Assembly: GCF_056746865.1 (NCBI RefSeq) | Contig: NZ_CM163382.1 | Direction: 5' to 3' (one strand) | Length of the DNA stretch: 64,000 bases | Shown here: positions 11,774-56,138 of the stretch, one piece after another | Numbering within the stretch: the first letter of the stretch is position 1 | Layout: each line of letters opens with the position of its first letter | The notes under the pieces: generated by a model | The model's input: only the letters and a program-made list of their open reading frames with translations | What the model was told of the DNA's origin: nothing | Database searches by the model: none | Program-made: the position numbers and the translations under genes

Positions 11774-11807
11774 AGACAAAATAAATATCCTCCGGCATAG
11801 CCGGAGG
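11774..11807 (-). terminator. pyrE attenuator hairpin with U-rich tract, ~30 nt upstream of the pyrE start
   Basis: Plus-strand cctccggcatagccggagg (11789-11807); on the pyrE-sense transcript it is followed by AUAUUUAUUUUG. Confidence 0.6.
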
Positions 11808-11809
11808 TT

Positions 11810-12520
11810 TTTCAAATGCGCCTATAAGGCTCTCTTACCAGCCGCGCCCTAACAGGCGCACACGATCTGACATTTGCATCCAACTTCGTTACTTACGGCC
11901 CGTAAACGGGCTGCCCGGATAGGGAATCGATAACTGCTCTCCCATTTTATCCTCTTCAAGCTGGTGCTTTATGTAATCCTGTATCTTCGCCGTGTTCTTA
12001 CCCACTGTATCGACGTAGTACCCTCTGCACCAGAACTCCCTGTTCCTGTATTTGAATTTCAAATCACCAAACTGCTCGTAAAGCATCAGACTGCTTTTCC
12101 CTTTCAGATATCCCATAAACCCGGATACGCTCATTTTAGGCGGGATCTCCACAAGCATATGGATATGATCTGCACAGCATTCAGCTTCCAGAATCCGTAC
12201 GCTTTTCCACTCACACAGCTTTCTCAAAATACTGCCTATTGCTCTACGCTTCTCTCTGTAGAACACCTGTCTTCGGTATTTTGGCGCAAAAACTATGTGA
12301 TATTTACAGTTCCATCGGGTGTGCGCTAAGCTCTTTTCGTTCCCCATTGGGACCCCCTTTTGATTTCTTGTTTGACACTTGCAGTTGCCAGACCGCAAGG
12401 TGTTTTAACAAATCAAAAGGGGTTTTAATAACTGGCTCAAAGCTGAAAGCTTTCCGGAACCCCCAGCCTAGCTGGGGGTTTTCTGTGCACAAAAAAAGGC
12501 GACTCATCAGTCGCCTTAAA
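11810..12520 (-). mobile_element. IS200-family insertion sequence (about 0.71 kb, ends approximate)
   Basis: Contains an IS200-type tnpA plus two hairpins at the rph-proximal end (aaggcgactgatgagtcgcc+T7, and aacccccagcctagctgggggtt). The rph-pyrE gap is 777 bp against about 68 bp recalled for K-12. Confidence 0.7.
11889..12347 (-). CDS. tnpA: IS200/IS605-family transposase TnpA (HUH Y1 type)
   Basis: MGNEKSLAHTRWNCKYHIVFAPKYRR...HIHMLVEIPPKMSVS matches IS200 TnpA; 152 aa from the internal Met. Confidence 0.9.
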   Translation of the reverse strand: MGNEKSLAHTRWNCKYHIVFAPKYRRQVFYREKRRAIGSILRKLCEWKSVRILEAECCADHIHMLVEIPPKMSVSGFMGYLKGKSSLMLYEQFGDLKFKYRNREFWCRGYYVDTVGKNTAKIQDYIKHQLEEDKMGEQLSIPYPGSPFTGRK

Positions 12521-14294: not shown

Positions 14295-14336
14295 TATCAT
14301 GAGCTATCATAACGACGCAACAAAGCGCACAATATG

Positions 14337-14360
14337 CGTGTACATAGAGGTGTACATAAT
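14337..14360. repeat. left boundary direct repeat of the island (putative attL): cgtgtacatagaggtgtacataat
   Basis: 22 of 24 identical to 35327-35350; flanked by further TGTACA palindromes at 14365-14390. Confidence 0.6.
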
Positions 14361-14417
14361 GACTTTCATGTACATTGCTTTATGTACACACCCATATTCG
14401 ATATTCAGGTATTCGCA

Positions 14418-15677
14418 ATGCCAAAACTCACAGATATGCAGATCCGCGCATGGATAAAGGCGGGAGACAGATTTGATGGCAAGGCAGACGGCAACGGCCT
14501 TTATATTTGCTACCCCAAAAACTACACAGTCCCGTTCTGGCGATTCCGCTATAAGCTCGCAGGAAAGCAGCGGGCTATGGTTATAGGCTCTTACTCCGAA
14601 CTGTCACTATCAAAAGCCAGAGAAACAGCAAAAGAGCTGTCAGCCAGAGTTGCTCTTGGCTATGACGTAGCAGCAGAGAAACAGGAACGAAAAGCTGAAG
14701 CACTGGCAAAAATGGAGGCTGAGAAAAACGCCATGCGTGTTTCAGATCTGGCCTCCGAATACTTCGAGCGCCAGATACTTCCGAGATGGAAACATCCCGA
14801 TATCCTTCGCCGGAGAATTGATAAGGATATTAACCCCTGCATTGGGCATATGAAGGTGGAGGACGTTAAGCCACGCCACATTGACGACATGTTGAAAGGT
14901 ATCGTTGACCGAGGAGCACCAACGATAGCAACAGATGTATTACGCTGGACACGCCGTATCTTTGACTATGGGATAAAACGCCATGCTCTGGAGATAAACC
15001 CTTGTTCAGCGTTTGAAGTATCTGATGCTGGTGGTAAAGAGGTTTCCCGCGACCGTTGGCTAACTCGCGATGAGCTTATCAGGCTATTCGAGGCTATGCG
15101 CACCGCAAAAGGATTCAGCCGCCAAAACGAACTGACATTTAAGCTATTGCTGGCACTATGCGTTCGTAAGATGGAGTTATGCGCCGCACGATGGGAAGAG
15201 TTTGATTTAGATAGTGCTGTATGGCATTTGCCGGAAGAACGCAGCAAAAACGGGGACCCTATTGATATACCTCTACCTTCTCCAGCCGTTGAATGGTTGA
15301 GAGAGCTACACACCTTTTCATGTAATAGCGCATGGGTGCTTCCAGCCAGGAAGATGCAAAACAGAATGATCCCACATATTCAGGAAAGCACTTTACCCGT
15401 AGCACTGGCTAAGGTTCGCGCCGAAATGCCGGATGTGCCTAATTTCACGATTCACGACTTCCGACGCACCGCACGTACTCATTTAGCAGCGTTGGGTGTT
15501 GATCCTGTTGTGGCGGAACGATGCCTCAATCATCGCATTAAGGGCGTAGAGGGGATTTATAACCGCCATCAGTATTTTAATGAGCGTAAAGCAGCACTGG
15601 CACAGTGGGCTGATCTGCTGGTGGCACTGGAAAGCGGAAAAGACTACAACGTAACGCCTCTCAGAAGGGCGAACTAA
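14418..15677 (+). CDS. int: tyrosine recombinase, P4/CP4-57 integrase family
   Basis: MPKLTDMQIRAWIKAGDRFDGKADGNGLYICYPKN... with C-terminal HDFRRTARTHL...NHR...IYNRHQY catalytic region; 419 aa. Confidence 0.9.
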   Translation: MPKLTDMQIRAWIKAGDRFDGKADGNGLYICYPKNYTVPFWRFRYKLAGKQRAMVIGSYSELSLSKARETAKELSARVALGYDVAAEKQERKAEALAKMEAEKNAMRVSDLASEYFERQILPRWKHPDILRRRIDKDINPCIGHMKVEDVKPRHIDDMLKGIVDRGAPTIATDVLRWTRRIFDYGIKRHALEINPCSAFEVSDAGGKEVSRDRWLTRDELIRLFEAMRTAKGFSRQNELTFKLLLALCVRKMELCAARWEEFDLDSAVWHLPEERSKNGDPIDIPLPSPAVEWLRELHTFSCNSAWVLPARKMQNRMIPHIQESTLPVALAKVRAEMPDVPNFTIHDFRRTARTHLAALGVDPVVAERCLNHRIKGVEGIYNRHQYFNERKAALAQWADLLVALESGKDYNVTPLRRAN

Positions 15678-49913: not shown

Positions 49914-51144
49914 AAATCAATCTCGCCGGGTACGACTCAGACGTACCCGGCATTCCGTCAATAGATTACAACGTAATTGTCAGCGCATTCCCTTGAGGCG
50001 TCACCACCAGCCCCTGCTCACTTTCAGCCTGCGAACCGCCTTGCAGACCATTTACTTTCACAACATTGCGCAAGCACAGTGTCCAGTTCTTCGCCTCGCC
50101 CGCACCAGTCACAGTAATCGTGTTACCAGTACGTGTTGCTTTTAGAGTAAAGATCACCGAACCGTCAGCAGCGGGCACTTCACAAAGAGCTTCATGCCCG
50201 TCTTGCAGATTAAAGAGATGGAATGCCGTGCCTTCGTGCCACGCGTAATCGGGACGTTGCTCGTTGTTGCCCAGCGCCAGTAGGGTGTTATCACGCACAT
50301 AAACGGGCAGACTCAGGAAGCTGTGCTGCTGTTTATGCCAGCGACTACCATCGAGTTCATCGTTGTGCCACAGATGTGTCCAGCGACCTTCCGGCAAGTA
50401 GAACTGCACATCGCCCGCTTCAGTGAACACCGGAGCAACCATCACGTTGTCGCCTAACATGTATTGACGGTCAAGGTAATCACAAGCCGGATCGTCCGGG
50501 AACTCCATCATCATGGCCCGCATCATCGGCGTACCCCGCGCGTTCGCACGAGCAGCTTCACGATACAGATACGGCATCATGCGGCATTTCAGTTGCGTGA
50601 AGAAGCGCACCACATCACAGGACTCATCATCATAGGCCCACGGCACACGATAAGATTTGCTGCCATGTAAACGGCTATGGCTGGAGAGCAAACCAAACGC
50701 GCACCAGCGTTTGTAAACGTGCGCCGGAGCGGTATTCTCAAAGCCGCCGATATCGTGGCTCCAGAAGCCAAAACCTGAAAGGCCAATAGACAAACCACCG
50801 CGCAGGCTTTCCGCCATTGATTCGTAGTTAGCGTAACAGTCGCCACCCCAGTGTACCGGGAATTTCTGCGCACCAACGGAGGCCGAGCGAGCAAACAAGA
50901 CGGCTTCTTCCTGGCCAACGGTTTCCTTGAGCACGTTCCACACCAGTTCGTTGTAGATGTACGCATAATGGTTATGCATTTTCTGCGGATCGGAACCGTC
51001 AAACCATTGAACATCGGTTGGAATACGTTCGCCAAAGTCAGTCTTAAAGCAATCAACGCCCATCGCGACCAGACCTTTCAGTTTGTCGGCGTACCATTTG
51101 CAGGCATCCGGATTGGTAAAGTCATAAATCGCCAGACCTGGCTG

Positions 51145-52570
51145 TAATGCCGATCAGTTAAGGATCAGTTGACCGATCCAGTGGCTGTGTAAGAATCCGG
51201 AAACGCTCACTTGTTTCCGGATTTTTTTATGCACATTGGACAGGCTCTTGATCTGGTATCCCGTTACGATTCTCTGCGTAACCCACTGACTTCTCTGGGG
51301 GATTACCTCGACCCCGAACTCATCTCTCGTTGCCTTGCCGAATCAGGTACTGTAACGCTACGCAAGCGCCGTCTTCCCCTCGAAATGATGGTCTGGTGTA
51401 TTGTTGGCATGGCGCTTGAGCGTAAAGAACCTCTTCACCAGATTGTGAATCGCCTGGACATCATGCTGCCGGGCAATCGCCCCTTCGTTGCCCCCAGTGC
51501 CGTTATTCAGGCCCGCCAGCGCCTGGGAAGTGAGGCTGTCCGCCGCGTGTTCACGAAAACAGCGCAGCTCTGGCATAACGCCACGCCGCATCCGCACTGG
51601 TGCGGCCTGACCCTGCTGGCCATCGATGGTGTGTTCTGGCGCACACCGGATACACCAGAGAACGATGCAGCCTTCCCCCGCCAGACACATGCCGGGAACC
51701 CGGCGCTCTACCCGCAGGTCAAAATGGTCTGCCAGATGGAACTGACCAGCCATCTGCTGACGGCTGCAGCCTTCGGCACGATGAAGAACAGCGAAAATGA
51801 GCTTGCTGAGCAACTTATAGAACAAACCGGCGATAACACTCTGACGTTAATGGATAAAGGTTATTACTCACTGGGACTGTTAAATGCCTGGAGCCTGGCG
51901 GGAGAACACCGCCACTGGATGATACCTCTCAGAAAGGGAGCGCAATATGAAGAGATCAGAAAACTGGGTAAAGGCGATCATCTGGTGAAGCTGAAAACCA
52001 GCCCGCAGGCACGAAAAAAGTGGCCGGGACTGGGAAATGAAGTGACTGCCCGCCTGCTGACCGTGACGCGCAAAGGAAAAGTCTGCCATCTGCTGACGTC
52101 GATGACGGACGCCATGCGCTTCCCCGGAGGAGAAATGGGGGATCTGTACAGTCATCGCTGGGAAATCGAACTGGGATACAGGGAGATAAAACAGACGATG
52201 CAACGGAGCAGGCTGACGCTGAGAAGTAAAAAGCCGGAGCTTGTGGAGCAAGAGCTGTGGGGTGTCTTACTGGCTTATAATCTGGTGAGATATCAGATGA
52301 TTAAAATGGCGGAACATCTGAAAGGTTACTGGCCGAATCAACTGAGTTTCTCAGAATCATGCGGAATGGTGATGAGAATGCTGATGACATTGCAGGGCGC
52401 TTCACCGGGACGTATACCGGAGCTGATGCGCGATCTTGCAAGTATGGGACAACTTGTGAAATTACCGACAAGAAGGGAAAGGGCCTTCCCGAGAGTGGTA
52501 AAGGAGAGGCCCTGGAAATACCCCACAGCCCCGAAAAAGAGCCAGTCAGTTGCTTAACTGACTGGCATTA
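51145..52570 (+). mobile_element. IS4, 1426 bp, 18-bp terminal inverted repeats, 12-bp target-site duplication CAGACCTGGCTG
   Basis: Ends taatgccgatcagttaag and cttaactgactggcatta (16/18 match as inverted repeats); TSD at 51133-51144 and 52571-52582. Confidence 0.9.
51229..52557 (+). CDS. insG: IS4 transposase
   Basis: [34 protein letters not shown] matches IS4 InsG; 442 aa. Confidence 0.9.
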
Positions 52571-53731
52571 CAGACCTGGCTGCCATTTATCCCACTGCCA
52601 CAGCGAACCGTCCGGGCGTTTGAGTAAATAGCCTTTCTCTTGTAACTCTTTAAAGACAGGGGATTTTTGCCCGATATAGGGGTTAATCCAGACGCAGATT
52701 TTCAGCCCTTTCGCTTTCAGGCGGCGGATCATCCCTTCCGGGTCCGGGAAAGTCAGCGGGTCCCACTCAAAATCGCACCACTGGAAGGCTTTCATCCAGA
52801 AACAGTCAAAGTGGAAAACATGCAGTGGCAGATTGCGTTCCGCCATACCATCGATAAAGCTGTTTACCGTCGCTTCGTCGTAGTTGGTGGTAAATGAAGT
52901 GGTTAGCCACAGACCGAAGGACCACGCGGGCGGCAGCGCCGGACGACCAGTAAAACGGGTATAACGATCAAGTACCGCTTTCGGCGTCGGGCCGTCGATA
53001 ACAAAGTATTCGAGATATTCACTCTCAACGCTGAACTGCACTTTGGAGACTTTCTCCGCTCCCACTTCAAAAGAGACGCATTGAGGATGATTGACCAGTA
53101 CCCCATAACCACGGTTAGTCATATAGAACGGGATATTTTTATACGCCTGTTCAGTACTTGTGCCGCCGTCCCGGTTCCAGGTCTCTACCGTCTGGCCATT
53201 GCGCACCAGGGCAGTAAAGCGCTCACCCAGACCGTAAACTGTTTCGCCAACGCCAAGATCCAGCCGCTCAAACATATAATTTCGTTGATTATTCGTGTCC
53301 TGCACGTAGCCATTATTTTTCACCTGACTACCGGTAATACGTTCGCCGTTGCGCAGAAAATCCAGTGACCAGAACTCACCTTTGCTGACACGCGCGCTTA
53401 AGTTGCCACTTTTAAACTCAGCGTAACGTTCTGTGTTTTCGATTGTGACCTTCACGTCCTGCAAAATATTGAGCGGATAATGAGGACCGTTATTCAGCGC
53501 CCCCTGAAAATGCTCAATCCGTACACCGACAATACCTTCCTGTGGGGAGAAAAAGCGCAGCGTAAATAAAGGCGTATCAAGCTGCCAGGTTCGTTCACGC
53601 ACATCACGGGGGGCAGCATAGACCACCATTTCATTACCCTGCTGTTCAACCTCGAACACCTGAAGCGGGTGAATCAAATTGAGGCCAGGTTGAATCAACC
53701 AGTTTCCATCGCTAATTTTCATTGCCGTTCC

Positions 53732-55114
53732 TTAGTTCTGCACTTCTTGAGAGGTGAATTGTTGCTGGCAACGGCGTTTGCCCTGGGCCAGCTGTTCCAT
53801 AACGGTTTTCAGATTGTGCGTCGTGAGTGAGTAGTAGCGTTTAGCGATAATCGCGCTCAGCAAATAACAGATCGCCGGAACAATCGTGAATAGCGCAATA
53901 ATGATGCTAATCGTGGCGCTGTTCTGCGCTTTTTCTGCCGCATCATATCCGCCATAAGCCAGCATCCAGCCGATAAGAGCGCCGCCGAAGGCCAACCCCA
54001 GTTTGAGCACAAACAGCGTGCCAGCAAAACTGATCCCGGTCAGGCGTTTACCATTGCACCACTCGCCGTAGTCGACGGTATCGGACATCATTACCCACTG
54101 GATAGGTGTCACTAGTTGATGCAACACACCAATCACGAAGATGAAGACAAACATGGTGATGCTGGCCTGCATAGGAACAAAGAACATCGCGAGGCTAATC
54201 ACTGCCAGCAGGGCGTTCGTCCACCAGAAGATAGTGACTTTACATTTCCAGTCGGTCAGCGGTTTTGCCAGTGCGGAACCAATCAGGTTACCCACGCAAT
54301 AAGTGGTGAGAAAAGCGACAAACACTTCCGGCGTACCCAAAATCCATGTGACGTAATACATCATCGCTCCACCGCGTACGCACACCGCCAGGATATTGAA
54401 AATGGTTAGTAAACCGACAATCCGCCACTGGTCGTTTTGCCAGATATCACGTAAATCTTCCCGCATAGACGTCGTTGTAGGTGGTGCTTCAACGCGTTCT
54501 TTAGTGGTGAAGAAACAAAATGCCAGCATCATAAATGCCACCACGGAAAGGACCGCGATACCGCCCTGGAAACCGAGTGGTTTATTATCACCACCAATTA
54601 AATTAACCAGCGGCATCATCAGCACAGTAGAGAGCATGCCTCCCGCGGTCGCCAGCACAAAACGCCAGGATTGCAGCGAGATACGCTGAGTCGGGTCATT
54701 GGTGATTACACCACCCAATGCGCAGTAAGGGATATTAACGATGGTATAAAGTAAGGTAAGTAGGGTGTAAGTAATTGCTGCATAAATCATTTTTCCGTTC
54801 ATACTGAGATCTGGCGTGCTATAGGCCAGTACACAGACGATCCCAAATGGCAGTGCGCCAAACAGTACCCACGGACGAAATTTACCCCAGCGAGAGCGCG
54901 TTCGATCGGCCAACAACCCCATGCAAGGATCGGAAATCGCATCCAGTGCACGAGCGACCAAAAACATGGTTCCGACAAATCCGGCAGGTATGCCAAAAAT
55001 ATCGGTATAAAAGAACATCATATATAACATTACGTTATCGAAAATAATGTGGCTGGCGGCGTCTCCCATGCCATAACCAATTTTCTCTTTAACGGACAAC
55101 ACTTCACTCTTCAT
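53732..55114 (-). CDS. yicJ: GPH-family sugar:cation symporter
   Basis: MKSEVLSVKEKIGYGMGDAASH; about 460 aa; upstream of yicI in the same orientation. Confidence 0.9.
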   Translation of the reverse strand: MKSEVLSVKEKIGYGMGDAASHIIFDNVMLYMMFFYTDIFGIPAGFVGTMFLVARALDAISDPCMGLLADRTRSRWGKFRPWVLFGALPFGIVCVLAYSTPDLSMNGKMIYAAITYTLLTLLYTIVNIPYCALGGVITNDPTQRISLQSWRFVLATAGGMLSTVLMMPLVNLIGGDNKPLGFQGGIAVLSVVAFMMLAFCFFTTKERVEAPPTTTSMREDLRDIWQNDQWRIVGLLTIFNILAVCVRGGAMMYYVTWILGTPEVFVAFLTTYCVGNLIGSALAKPLTDWKCKVTIFWWTNALLAVISLAMFFVPMQASITMFVFIFVIGVLHQLVTPIQWVMMSDTVDYGEWCNGKRLTGISFAGTLFVLKLGLAFGGALIGWMLAYGGYDAAEKAQNSATISIIIALFTIVPAICYLLSAIIAKRYYSLTTHNLKTVMEQLAQGKRRCQQQFTSQEVQN

Positions 55115-55406
55115 CTGCTTTTCCTTGATGCTATAGGGGTGCTGAGACCGATAACGCATTTTGTAAACCATCCCTGTGAGAGCGAATATTCCGATATCTG
55201 GTTATTAATTTATGATTCTTGTTTTATGTGATCGTGGTAGCGTTAATTTCGCTCATATATCATTGTAAAATATGGGTTTTATATGAACTATAATGCTTTC
55301 GTGATAATACGCTGCGTGTATTAGGCGGAAAAAACTGATCTGGGGGATGTAGAAACTCAAGGAAGTAGCTATAATGCGCCCCGCCTCCATGTAGCAATCG
55401 AGGCGC

Positions 55407-55501
55407 GGAAGATCGTCGTCTCCGGTGAGGCGGCTGGACTTCAAATCCAGTTGGGGCCGCCAGCGGTCCCGGGCAGGTTCGACTCCTGTGATCTTCCGCC
55501 A
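55407..55501 (+). tRNA. selC: tRNA-Sec (selenocysteine, UCA anticodon)
   Basis: ggaagatcgtcgtctccggtgaggcggctggacttcaaatccagttggggccgccagcggtcccgggcaggttcgactcctgtgatcttccgcca matches selC; 95 nt with long variable arm and 3' CCA. Confidence 0.95.
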
Positions 55502-56138
55502 ATTAGCCTCTTCTGACATTCTCCAACCCCTTGTAATACTGTCATTCCAGAGATTTTCTATCTGCTCAATATTCAATCGGCTTCAGGAATACCTGATCAA
55601 AAGTTTTGTGATGGACGATGAGCGACTGAAGAATCCGCCTGTCGGTTCTTCTGTCCTCGAACGCATCCGCGATATGCGCGCCAGCATGTGCCGTGTTTAT
55701 TTGCAGGTGATTTGCCCCCTGCTGGCTCTCAGCCAACTGTATCGCCATTAAGGTGAAGATATTGTTTTACACGCTCCATAACACCCTTTTTTATACGACG
55801 ATTCTATTCCTTTAACAGCTGGCGAAAAAAACTGACCTGTAAACTTCACCAATAATCAGACTGTCATCAAGATTAATTTTTTCATTTAATATATCAAATC
55901 AACTTGTTTTATTTTTACTATCAAAAATAGCTCATTGCCTTACTATAATTAATATATAAATTCGGTGATTAATTCTTAACATGCTTTTGCTAATAATCTC
56001 AATTGCTGGCCCTATAATATTGCGCTAGCATTGCTTTCTGGTTGTATCAGCGACACTCAAAAATTCTTAATACAATACTCATTCGACTGGTACTTATTTG
56101 TAACTCAGTTATATTTTGTCGCCCGGTGATTCAGAAGA

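Follow-up and report, generated by a model that had tools for sequence, protein, structure and literature searches.

The yicI gene in the 64,000-nucleotide stretch of DNA analysed here (hereafter the window) is, judged by its sequence, a pseudogene, and the IS4 copy that interrupts it very probably arrived by canonical transposition in the ancestor of a sub-clade of Escherichia coli ST69, at a site set by the target preference of the element. The observations behind this reading are the identity of the element, its junctions, the clean restoration of the gene on excision, the sharing of the insertion within a clade, the repeated use of one 12-bp site and the pattern shared by IS4 targets. IS4 would have moved by its normal DDE mechanism, with cuts staggered by 12 bp, into codons 381–384 of yicI in the ancestor of a large ST69 sub-clade of which the window would be a member. 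The insertion would thereby have split the GH31 TIM barrel and stranded D416 and D482 on the downstream fragment, with loss of alpha-xylosidase activity; its position would have been determined by target preference, and neither by chance nor necessarily by selection.

The IS4 copy and the interrupted yicI gene

The element, which belongs to the IS4 subgroup of the IS4 family, is identical over 1,426 of 1,426 nucleotides to the feature ‘insertion sequence:IS4’ of K-12 MG1655, which bears out the assignment to IS4 made in a first-pass annotation from the letters alone, together with the length and the 18-bp inverted repeats given there. These terminal repeats (TAATGCCGATCAGTTAAG and TAATGCCAGTCAGTTAAG) are imperfect, matching at 16 of 18 positions with two mismatches, and no second pair of this type occurs in the window (chance expectation 0.09). 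The transposase is identical to K-12 InsG over 442 residues and contains the Pfam domains PF13006 (Nterm_IS4, E = 3e-33) and PF01609 (DDE_Tnp_1, E = 2.8e-31). Because the open reading frame and both ends are intact, this copy is presumably competent for transposition; the 1–7 IS4-matching places per chromosome in ST69 genomes are consistent with occasional further transposition. A putative terminator hairpin near the right end is the first thing in IS4 that transcription from yicJ and the yicI 5' fragment would meet (Table 1).

The 12-bp repeats that flank the element are perfect copies of CAGACCTGGCTG, with identity ending at the repeat edges and no match in the bases beyond either edge; the window contains no further copy besides these two. 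On the minus strand the repeat reads CAGCCAGGTCTG and corresponds to yicI codons 381–384 (Q-P-G-L). The first three bases of the right IS end form an in-frame TAA (52570–52568), so that the upstream YicI fragment, residues 1–384, stops exactly at Leu384. In-silico removal of the IS and one repeat yields a minus-strand frame of 772 amino acids from 53722 to 49966, free of stops and frameshifts, and E. coli 042 has this same gene uninterrupted (WP_000702939.1), with 0 of 2,319 nucleotides different. The earlier description of a 12-bp target duplication, a split yicI and a 772-codon frame recovered on excision is thus accurate, and the extra stops or frameshifts that it had named as a sign of older decay are absent. 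As the same junctions are found in 52 independently assembled complete genomes, the insertion is not an assembly artefact.

The rebuilt protein aligns over residues 1–772 to the YicI structure sequences 1WE5, 1XSI and 2F2H (1844 bits) and contains the domains Gal_mutarotas_2, Glyco_hydro_31_2nd and Glyco_hydro_31_3rd. The break after codon 384 falls inside the GH31 TIM-barrel domain (residues 261–575), upstream of the motifs KTDFGE (414; D416) and WGGD (479; D482), both of which are held by the 3' fragment. D416 and D482 are the catalytic aspartates (nucleophile and acid/base), and they are not part of one uninterrupted YicI polypeptide, both lying downstream of the break. Because the break precedes both, the YicI of the window is almost certainly inactive and its alpha-xylosidase activity lost.

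Table 1 Features at the interrupted yicI locus (window coordinates)
Feature	Position	Strand	Remarks
yicI 3' fragment: duplicated codons 381–384, codons 385–772 and stop	49966..51144	-	RefSeq in 118UI: pseudogene ‘missing N-terminus’
Target-site duplication, left copy, CAGACCTGGCTG	51133..51144	.	yicI codons 381–384
IS4	51145..52570	+	1426 bp; compared with K-12 MG1655 IS4
Left terminal inverted repeat, TAATGCCGATCAGTTAAG	51145..51162	+	
Promoter-like site: TTGACC, 16-nt spacer, AAGAAT, TG extension	51169..51196	+	Consensus match only; upstream of transposase start
IS4 transposase (InsG), 442 aa + stop	51229..52557	+	Intact ORF; opposite strand to yicI
Terminator-like hairpin: 11-bp stem GCCAGTCAGTT / AACTGACTGGC, then TCTTTTTCGG	52541..52566	-	Consensus match only
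Right terminal inverted repeat, TAATGCCAGTCAGTTAAG as read on the minus strand	52553..52570	-	
Target-site duplication, right copy, CAGACCTGGCTG	52571..52582	.	Perfect repeat
yicI 5' fragment, codons 1–384	52571..53722	-	RefSeq in 118UI: pseudogene ‘missing C-terminus’
yicJ, glycoside-pentoside-hexuronide (GPH) family transporter, 460 aa	53732..55114	-	Intact

The upstream gene yicJ, placed 9 bp from yicI on the same strand, had been called intact, and so it proves: its 460-residue product shows a full-length MFS_2 domain (PF13347, residues 13–428, E = 2e-90), and the YicJ of strain 118UI, which has one mismatch to the window over 35419–64000, is WP_000834422.1, an accession also present in strains with an uninterrupted operon. 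Strains with an empty site have the same yicJ, promoter region and selC sequences as the window. The transporter gene would therefore be structurally untouched and probably still expressed, and polarity should affect nothing else, because no gene follows yicI in the operon and yicH is convergent. No experimental assignment of a YicJ substrate was found in the literature searched; from the operon association it might be supposed, as the first-pass annotation did, that the locus would import but not hydrolyse its substrate.

Recurrent insertion at one 12-bp target

Recurrence of IS4 at this yicI target does not figure in the first-pass annotation. Across 5,426 complete E. coli genomes, four (APEC E18055, A37, PRO_A-1443-6M-A and fS25a), which represent three lineages, have the element at the identical 12 bp but inverted relative to the window, and in 14EC007 it lies there in the same orientation as in the window. 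All of these other carriers restore the 772-aa frame on excision. The yicI backgrounds of the independent carriers differ from one another at 10–63 of 2,319 nucleotides, and four distinct IS4 sequence variants are found among yicI-site carriers; in contrast to the window element, the copies at this site in the other carriers show 1, 7 or 15 differences, with the transposase gene frameshifted in two. At least five independent insertions at exactly these 12 bp, in both orientations and in unrelated lineages, are well supported, marking the site as an IS4 hot spot.

A target weight matrix was built from 53 IS4 flanks outside yicI. In these flanks, A occurs at −18 in 86%, G at −4 in 74% and G at −1 likewise in 74%, accompanied by an A-run from −21 to −16 and a C-rich stretch from −14 to −9; the A at −18 and the G at −1 are present in both yicI flanks. 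A matrix trained without the yicI flanks ranks the yicI site 109th of 187,506, in the top 0.06% of positions in the window. Rank 109 within 62.5 kb leaves many sites that score better yet are not occupied, and a simple weight matrix does not fully explain the frequent hits at the yicI site. The target duplication of IS4 spans roughly one helical turn (11–13 bp); other IS4 sites have duplications of 11, 12 and 13 bp. In the yicI target, GATAAATGGCAGCCAGGTCTGGCGATTTATG, a G+C-rich core is bracketed by an A-rich and a T-rich arm in symmetric positions ~6 nt beyond the 12-bp duplication, as at other IS4 sites; this target and that of K-12 both show an AAA run, at −18 to −16 or at −19 to −17, and a TTT run shortly past the duplication. 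IS4 has a target consensus of AAA-N20-TTT and has inserted repeatedly into galT at one site; the pattern derived here (AAA, 19–20 nt, TTT) is consistent with that consensus. Literature searches on the IS4 target in galT and on IS4 pseudogenes in ST69 returned nothing.

Many IS4 flanks resemble terminators or terminator hairpins, and the IS4 site at bamD-raiA folds strongly (−13.2 kcal/mol, z = −6.3). A hairpin or terminator was nevertheless rejected as a required target feature: the K-12 site lacks any potential to form a hairpin, which means that IS4 does not need dyad symmetry, and the yicI site, which has weak dyad symmetry (z = −2.07), folds weakly. The A/T arms and G/C pattern describe IS4 targets better than hairpin structure does.

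It is unlikely that ExPEC lineages such as ST69 gain an advantage from the repeated loss of yicI and that selection, not target preference, drives the spread and recurrence of the knock-outs. The benefit would come either from loss of the alpha-xylosidase or from a transporter kept when the hydrolase is gone. In favour of such an effect are the five or more independent events, one of them now present in 52 of the 5,426 complete genomes. A further point is that, in ST38, chromosomal ISEcp1-blaCTX-M-14 is found more often in yicI than anywhere else (PMC9241692), so that the gene appears to be repeatedly lost, or at least dispensable. However, all five IS4 events fall on the identical 12 bp, whereas selected loss should vary in position and in type of mutation, and this site matches the target preference seen at unrelated IS4 sites. 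Moreover, a near-identical strain with an empty site persists, and deletion of yicJI, in the summary of Reperant et al. 2011 given in PMC11157272, lowered stationary-phase level and competitive fitness, although that deletion removes yicJ too. We infer that the insertion is selectively neutral. A mixed account, in which codons 379–389 form a species-wide, orientation-independent, terminator-like IS4 hot spot and the parallel knock-outs, including the rise in ST69, may be non-neutral, is comparably doubtful as a whole, its hot-spot part being well supported; the niches favoured might then, speculatively, be extra-intestinal or of the antibiotic era, through the retained YicJ or through lost use of xyloglucan oligosaccharides.

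Still less probable is the movement of one yicI::IS4 segment among lineages by homologous recombination instead of repeated transposition. The region is indeed mosaic, 042 having a yicI identical to that of the window and a yicJ region that differs at 71 of 1,860 nucleotides, but recombination could not produce the opposite orientation seen in three lineages; the flanks of 14EC007, which has the same orientation, depart from the ST69 allele starting 31 bp and 105 bp away from the IS, and the IS4 sequence itself varies among carriers.

Distribution and age of the ST69 insertion

The junction in the orientation of the window occurs in 53 of the 5,426 genomes, 52 of which are ~100% identical. These 52 span several continents and hosts: Mexico and Australia are represented, and the sources include humans, poultry, duck and water. 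MS14387, one of the carriers, is documented as ST69 O17:H18 (PMC10024524), and the ST69 label of the carriers is based on this member and the near-identity of the rest; disruption of yicI by IS4 in ST69 has already been mentioned (PMC9241692). An assignment to ST38, guessed from strain names, was discarded in view of the sequence type of MS14387 and the placement of the IS4 disruption in ST69 by PMC9241692, which describes a different yicI insertion, ISEcp1-blaCTX-M-14, in ST38. Since orientation and IS sequence are the same throughout and the flanks are near-identical over 28 kb, 52 separate gains are very unlikely. The insertion is real, and it is an ordinary marker of ST69 that had been reported before.

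A very recent event private to the source strain is scarcely credible: the perfect duplication, the absence of substitutions in both yicI halves relative to intact alleles and the match of the IS copy to reference IS4 would all suit it, but identical junctions and flanks recur in 52 complete genomes from varied places and hosts, the yicI copy is the sole chromosomal IS4 of MS14387, and ST69 isolates with an IS4-disrupted yicI are on record (PMC9241692).

The site is empty in at least 15 genomes with an identical 5,162-bp region. Ec-FL1-1X, also with an empty site, differs from the window at 1 of 26,562 bp and is exactly as close to it as MS14387, an ST69 strain that carries the IS. Ec-FL1-1X is probably ST69 as well, to judge from a preprint with ST69 isolates in the same fresh-litter group. 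Its empty site could in principle reflect precise excision or recombinational repair, not the ancestral state. On these sequence comparisons, the view that the insertion is recent on an evolutionary scale holds. Of the earlier wording, ‘clean, probably recent’, the perfect repeats, undecayed flanks and near-identical empty-site Ec-FL1-1X uphold the general sense, whereas an event confined to a single strain does not stand, since 52 genomes share it.

ST69 is a pandemic lineage of extra-intestinal pathogenic E. coli, and one large sub-clade of it can be recognised simply by the yicI::IS4 junction, through PCR or k-mers; the junction predicts missing alpha-xylosidase activity in those strains. 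The locus also offers a tidy natural case of the extreme target specificity of IS4, the same 12 coding base pairs having been hit at least five times and in both orientations. Two cautions follow: recurrent gene loss need not signal selection, and a shared IS junction is no proof of common descent. Knowledge of IS4 or YicI is left unchanged by these findings.

Comparison with known alleles and with K-12

The ST69 yicI::IS4 allele, represented by genomes such as 118UI and MS14387, in which RefSeq annotates yicI as a split pseudogene, has junctions, orientation, IS and flanks identical to those of the window. 118UI and the window agree at every position of yicI and the IS, and have a single mismatch over 35419–64000. 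The two are not collinear over the full 64 kb; an IS200-like element (11786–12490) and a 21-kb phage-like island (14230–35418) set them apart, and the full island was present in no genome of the searched collection.

By contrast, the yicJI locus is uninterrupted in E. coli 042, Ec-FL1-1X, RM14516 and EcPF15, whereas the window copy is broken after codon 384. K-12 YicI and the rebuilt window protein align over all 772 residues, with about a dozen substitutions. The family rule for IS4 is a target duplication of ‘about 10 bp’ (PMC2266710), and K-12 IS4 (insG, b4278; MG1655 4502090–4503515) has, like the window copy, a 12-bp duplication, a length of 1,426 nucleotides, a transposase of 442 residues and imperfect 18-bp ends. 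The two differ in location: the K-12 element lies between yjgZ and nanX, flanked by the duplication CAGAACCAAGAT, whereas that of the window lies inside yicI.

The IS4 copy in yicI and its consequences

The first-pass annotation had described an IS4 insertion of 1426 bp, with 18-bp inverted repeats and a 12-bp target duplication, in the alpha-xylosidase gene yicI; reading of the sequence and a script check found all of these. The 12-mer CAGACCTGGCTG has no third occurrence within 64 kb, and the nucleotides immediately flanking its two copies are unlike, so that the duplication is exactly 12 bp. The IS ends, TAATGCCGATCAGTTAAG and (on the other strand) TAATGCCAGTCAGTTAAG, match at 16 of 18 positions and form the sole such pair in the window when up to three mismatches are allowed (chance expectation 0.09). 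All 1426 nucleotides are identical to the E. coli K-12 MG1655 feature 'insertion sequence:IS4', and the transposase is identical to InsG of K-12; the element is IS4 proper, more than a relative.

Excision of 51145–52582 (the IS and one repeat) restored, as had been claimed, a 772-codon frame (53722 to 49966, minus strand) free of stops and frameshifts. The reconstructed gene is the same as the yicI annotated as intact in E. coli 042 (0 differences over 2,319 nt), and the protein it encodes can be aligned over its whole length with crystallised K-12 YicI (1WE5, 1XSI, 2F2H; 1844 bits, ~12 substitutions). The duplication coincides exactly with codons 381–384 (Q-P-G-L), and because TAA opens both IS4 ends, the upstream YicI fragment stops right after Leu384 with zero extra residues. 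The break falls inside the GH31 TIM-barrel domain (Pfam, residues 261–575), upstream of the motifs KTDFGE (D416) and WGGD (D482), which in the YicI structures hold the catalytic nucleophile and acid/base residue, so that activity of either fragment appears implausible. In strains of identical structure RefSeq treats each yicI half as a pseudogene fragment, and the IS4 insertion most probably inactivates yicI.

Features of the window discussed in the text (window positions)
Feature	Position	Strand	Details
IS200-like element	11786–12490		~706 bp; between pyrE and rph; absent from ST69 strain 118UI
Y1_Tnp 'Transposase IS200 like' ORF	within 11889–12398	−	E = 3.8e-38
Phage-like integrative island	14230–35418		~21.2 kb; directly after yicC; absent from 118UI
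Tyrosine integrase	14334–15677		Island start; Arm-DNA-bind_3, Phage_int_M, Phage_integrase
Target duplication CAGACCTGGCTG	51133–51144 and 52571–52582		12 bp; sequence read over 50900–52800, script check
IS4 (between duplicates)	51145–52570		1426 bp
Transposase ORF	51229–52557	+	442 aa; Pfam Nterm_IS4, DDE_Tnp_1; single long ORF of the element
Terminator-like hairpin	52566–52541	−	Just inside IS end; 11-bp stem then T-run; consensus scan, pattern match
yicJ	53732–55114	−	460 aa; full-length MFS_2 match; intact; 9 bp upstream of yicI
tRNA-Sec (selC), then internal rhuM fragment	~55407–55709		Fragment of 129 bp
Type III secretion translocon cluster	~59980–64000		Beside yicS; SycD/LcrH-like chaperone, SctE, IpaD/SipD-like tip protein

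The symporter gene yicJ is indeed upstream and intact, and YicJ in 118UI, a carrier of the same insertion with one mismatch to the window over 35419–64000, shares its accession with strains whose operon is uninterrupted. That the locus would import its substrate without hydrolysing it is a sensible guess drawn from operon structure; a literature search found no evidence on the YicJ substrate or on expression of the yicJ–yicI operon. The next gene past yicI, yicH, is convergent, so polarity has no downstream gene to act on. If functional, the terminator-like hairpin would end the yicJ–yicI' transcript straight after the new stop codon. This hairpin sits inside the right IS4 end, against inward-reading transcription. 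With a TAA at the tip of both ends and this hairpin, IS4 insertions in genes may leave upstream fragments cleanly stopped and terminated.

A recurrent IS4 target

IS4 also lies in exactly the same 12 bp in APEC E18055, A37, PRO_A-1443-6M-A and fS25a, in the reverse orientation, transposase and yicI being read in the same direction, and at the same site in 14EC007, in the window's orientation within a different yicI background; excision restores 772 codons in all five. The yicI backgrounds of independent carriers are 10–63 of 2,319 nt apart, the IS copies fall into four different sequence variants (compared with the copy in the window: 1 substitution; 15 substitutions; 6 substitutions and a 1-nt insertion; a 1-nt deletion), and the 14EC007 flanks part from the ST69 allele starting 31 bp and 105 bp away from the IS. 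Orientation, yicI background, IS variant and the 14EC007 flanks thus show the events to be independent; they number at least five, split two to three between the orientations. Selection for loss of yicI might be invoked for such recurrence; this adaptive reading is weakened by the identity of the 12 bp in all events, and by a reduction in fitness upon yicJI deletion reported in a study cited in PMC11157272. Spread by recombination is contradicted by the IS4 orientations and by the flanks. An addition of the present analysis is that IS4 strikes the yicI site recurrently and in either orientation, which makes it a hot spot.

The IS4 copies at this site in 14EC007, PRO_A-1443-6M-A and fS25a are 1425 or 1427 bp long, with transposase genes that carry frameshift annotations; this could be real decay or homopolymer errors of long-read assembly. 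In the metagenome contig OGEM01002215.1 (L055), 14EC007-type yicI sequence adjoins IS4 on the right, but the left flank is unrelated and terminator-like, and a duplication is absent; the contig is either a chimeric assembly or the product of recombination (inversion or deletion) between two copies of IS4. Similar mismatched IS4 flanks occur in the comparison sequences L031, L051 and L056.

The older target consensus for IS4 is 'AAA-N20-TTT'. IS4 ends and flanks were gathered from 80 metagenome contigs plus genome loci; with flanks sharing their last 16 nt collapsed and two yicI flanks omitted, 53 flanks from other sites were obtained. Read outward from the IS end, these display an A-run at −21 to −16 (A at −18 in 86%), C-rich positions −14 to −9, and G at −4 and at −1 (74% each), and duplications at IS4 sites are 11, 12 or 13 bp long. 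Many sites are obvious terminator hairpins between A- and T-runs, for example AAAACGGCAGCCTTGAGCTGCCGTTTT between bamD and raiA. The yicI target GATAAATGGCAGCCAGGTCTGGCGATTTATG has a G+C-rich core and symmetric AAA and TTT arms separated by 19 nt, with A at −18 and G at −1 in both arms. In two-sided matrix scoring of the excised window, with yicI flanks excluded from training, it ranked 109th of 187,506 candidate positions (top 0.06%, ~3.4 s.d. above the mean); this score is good, not best, so the simple matrix misses part of the target preference. By these measures the yicI site fits the empirically derived pattern, a further addition of this analysis. Hairpin potential was rejected as an essential target feature, the K-12 site being without a fold and the yicI site folding weakly. 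The IS200 terminal hairpin CCCCCAGCCTAGCTGGGGG (12457–12477) is occupied by IS4 in three metagenome contigs (L018, L028 and L059), and is therefore also an IS4 target.

Neighbouring elements and mosaic ancestry

Genes annotated in related copies of the phage-like island include ash and those for a TOPRIM/DUF927 primase, a phage DNA ejection protein and a lytic transglycosylase; with a 22-kb query spanning the island, none of the complete E. coli genomes in the collection covered more than 84%. The translocon cluster includes a small frameshifted ORF, and in related strains runs on into eilA and the giant inverse autotransporter air/eaeX or iatC. The rhuM fragment resembles a scar left by an earlier island at the selC integration site; 042 has an integrase at this position. 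Over the yicJ region (53723–55582), 042 differs from the window at 71 of 1,860 nt; together with its identity in yicI, this points to a recombination breakpoint at or near the yicI–yicJ boundary, and the ancestry of the region is mosaic.

Distribution, age and origin of the insertion

Both junctions, in the window's orientation, are present in 53 of 5,426 complete E. coli genomes; for 52 of these, a 2,238-bp query across the element matched at ~100% identity. These 52 come from humans, chickens, one duck, wastewater, seawater and surface water, and two carriers examined individually originate from Mexico and Australia. The carrier MS14387 is ST69 O17:H18 (PMC10024524); its yicI copy is its sole chromosomal IS4, and other carriers have up to seven places matching the query. 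With this documented ST69 member and the near-identity of 118UI (28.6 kb around the locus), the 52 carriers identify the insertion as a lineage marker, already noticed, and contradict a strain-specific event.

An uninterrupted site, with 100% identity to the window over the 5,162 bp around it (end of yicH, yicI, yicJ, selC and the rhuM scar), is present in at least 15 genomes. Ec-FL1-1X, with an empty site, differs from the window at 1 of 26,562 bp, a distance equal to that of IS-bearing MS14387, and is probably also ST69, because its source preprint has ST69 isolates in the same fresh-litter group. The uninterrupted RM14516 (O17:H18) and EcPF15 (apparently ST394 from its announcement table) each show ~60 differences over 26.5 kb. 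The near-identical empty-site genomes therefore place the origin of the insertion within, or at the base of, an ST69 sub-clade; precise excision or recombinational repair is a possible source of the empty site in Ec-FL1-1X. That the insertion is polymorphic among near-identical genomes is likewise new here. The description 'clean, probably recent' holds on an evolutionary scale, given these genomes and zero substitutions in the yicI halves and in the IS since insertion, but the event is older than the world-wide spread of the sub-clade.

The locus is best read as ordinary IS4 transposition into a sequence that happened to match its target preference, followed by inheritance of the insertion, with yicI inactivated, in a successful ST69 sub-clade. 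Every element of the original observation was thus confirmed, and its interpretation is partly supported. The configuration, a canonical IS4 in a known, dispensable gene, is as such already known: dozens of RefSeq genomes carry it in annotated form, and the literature mentions it.
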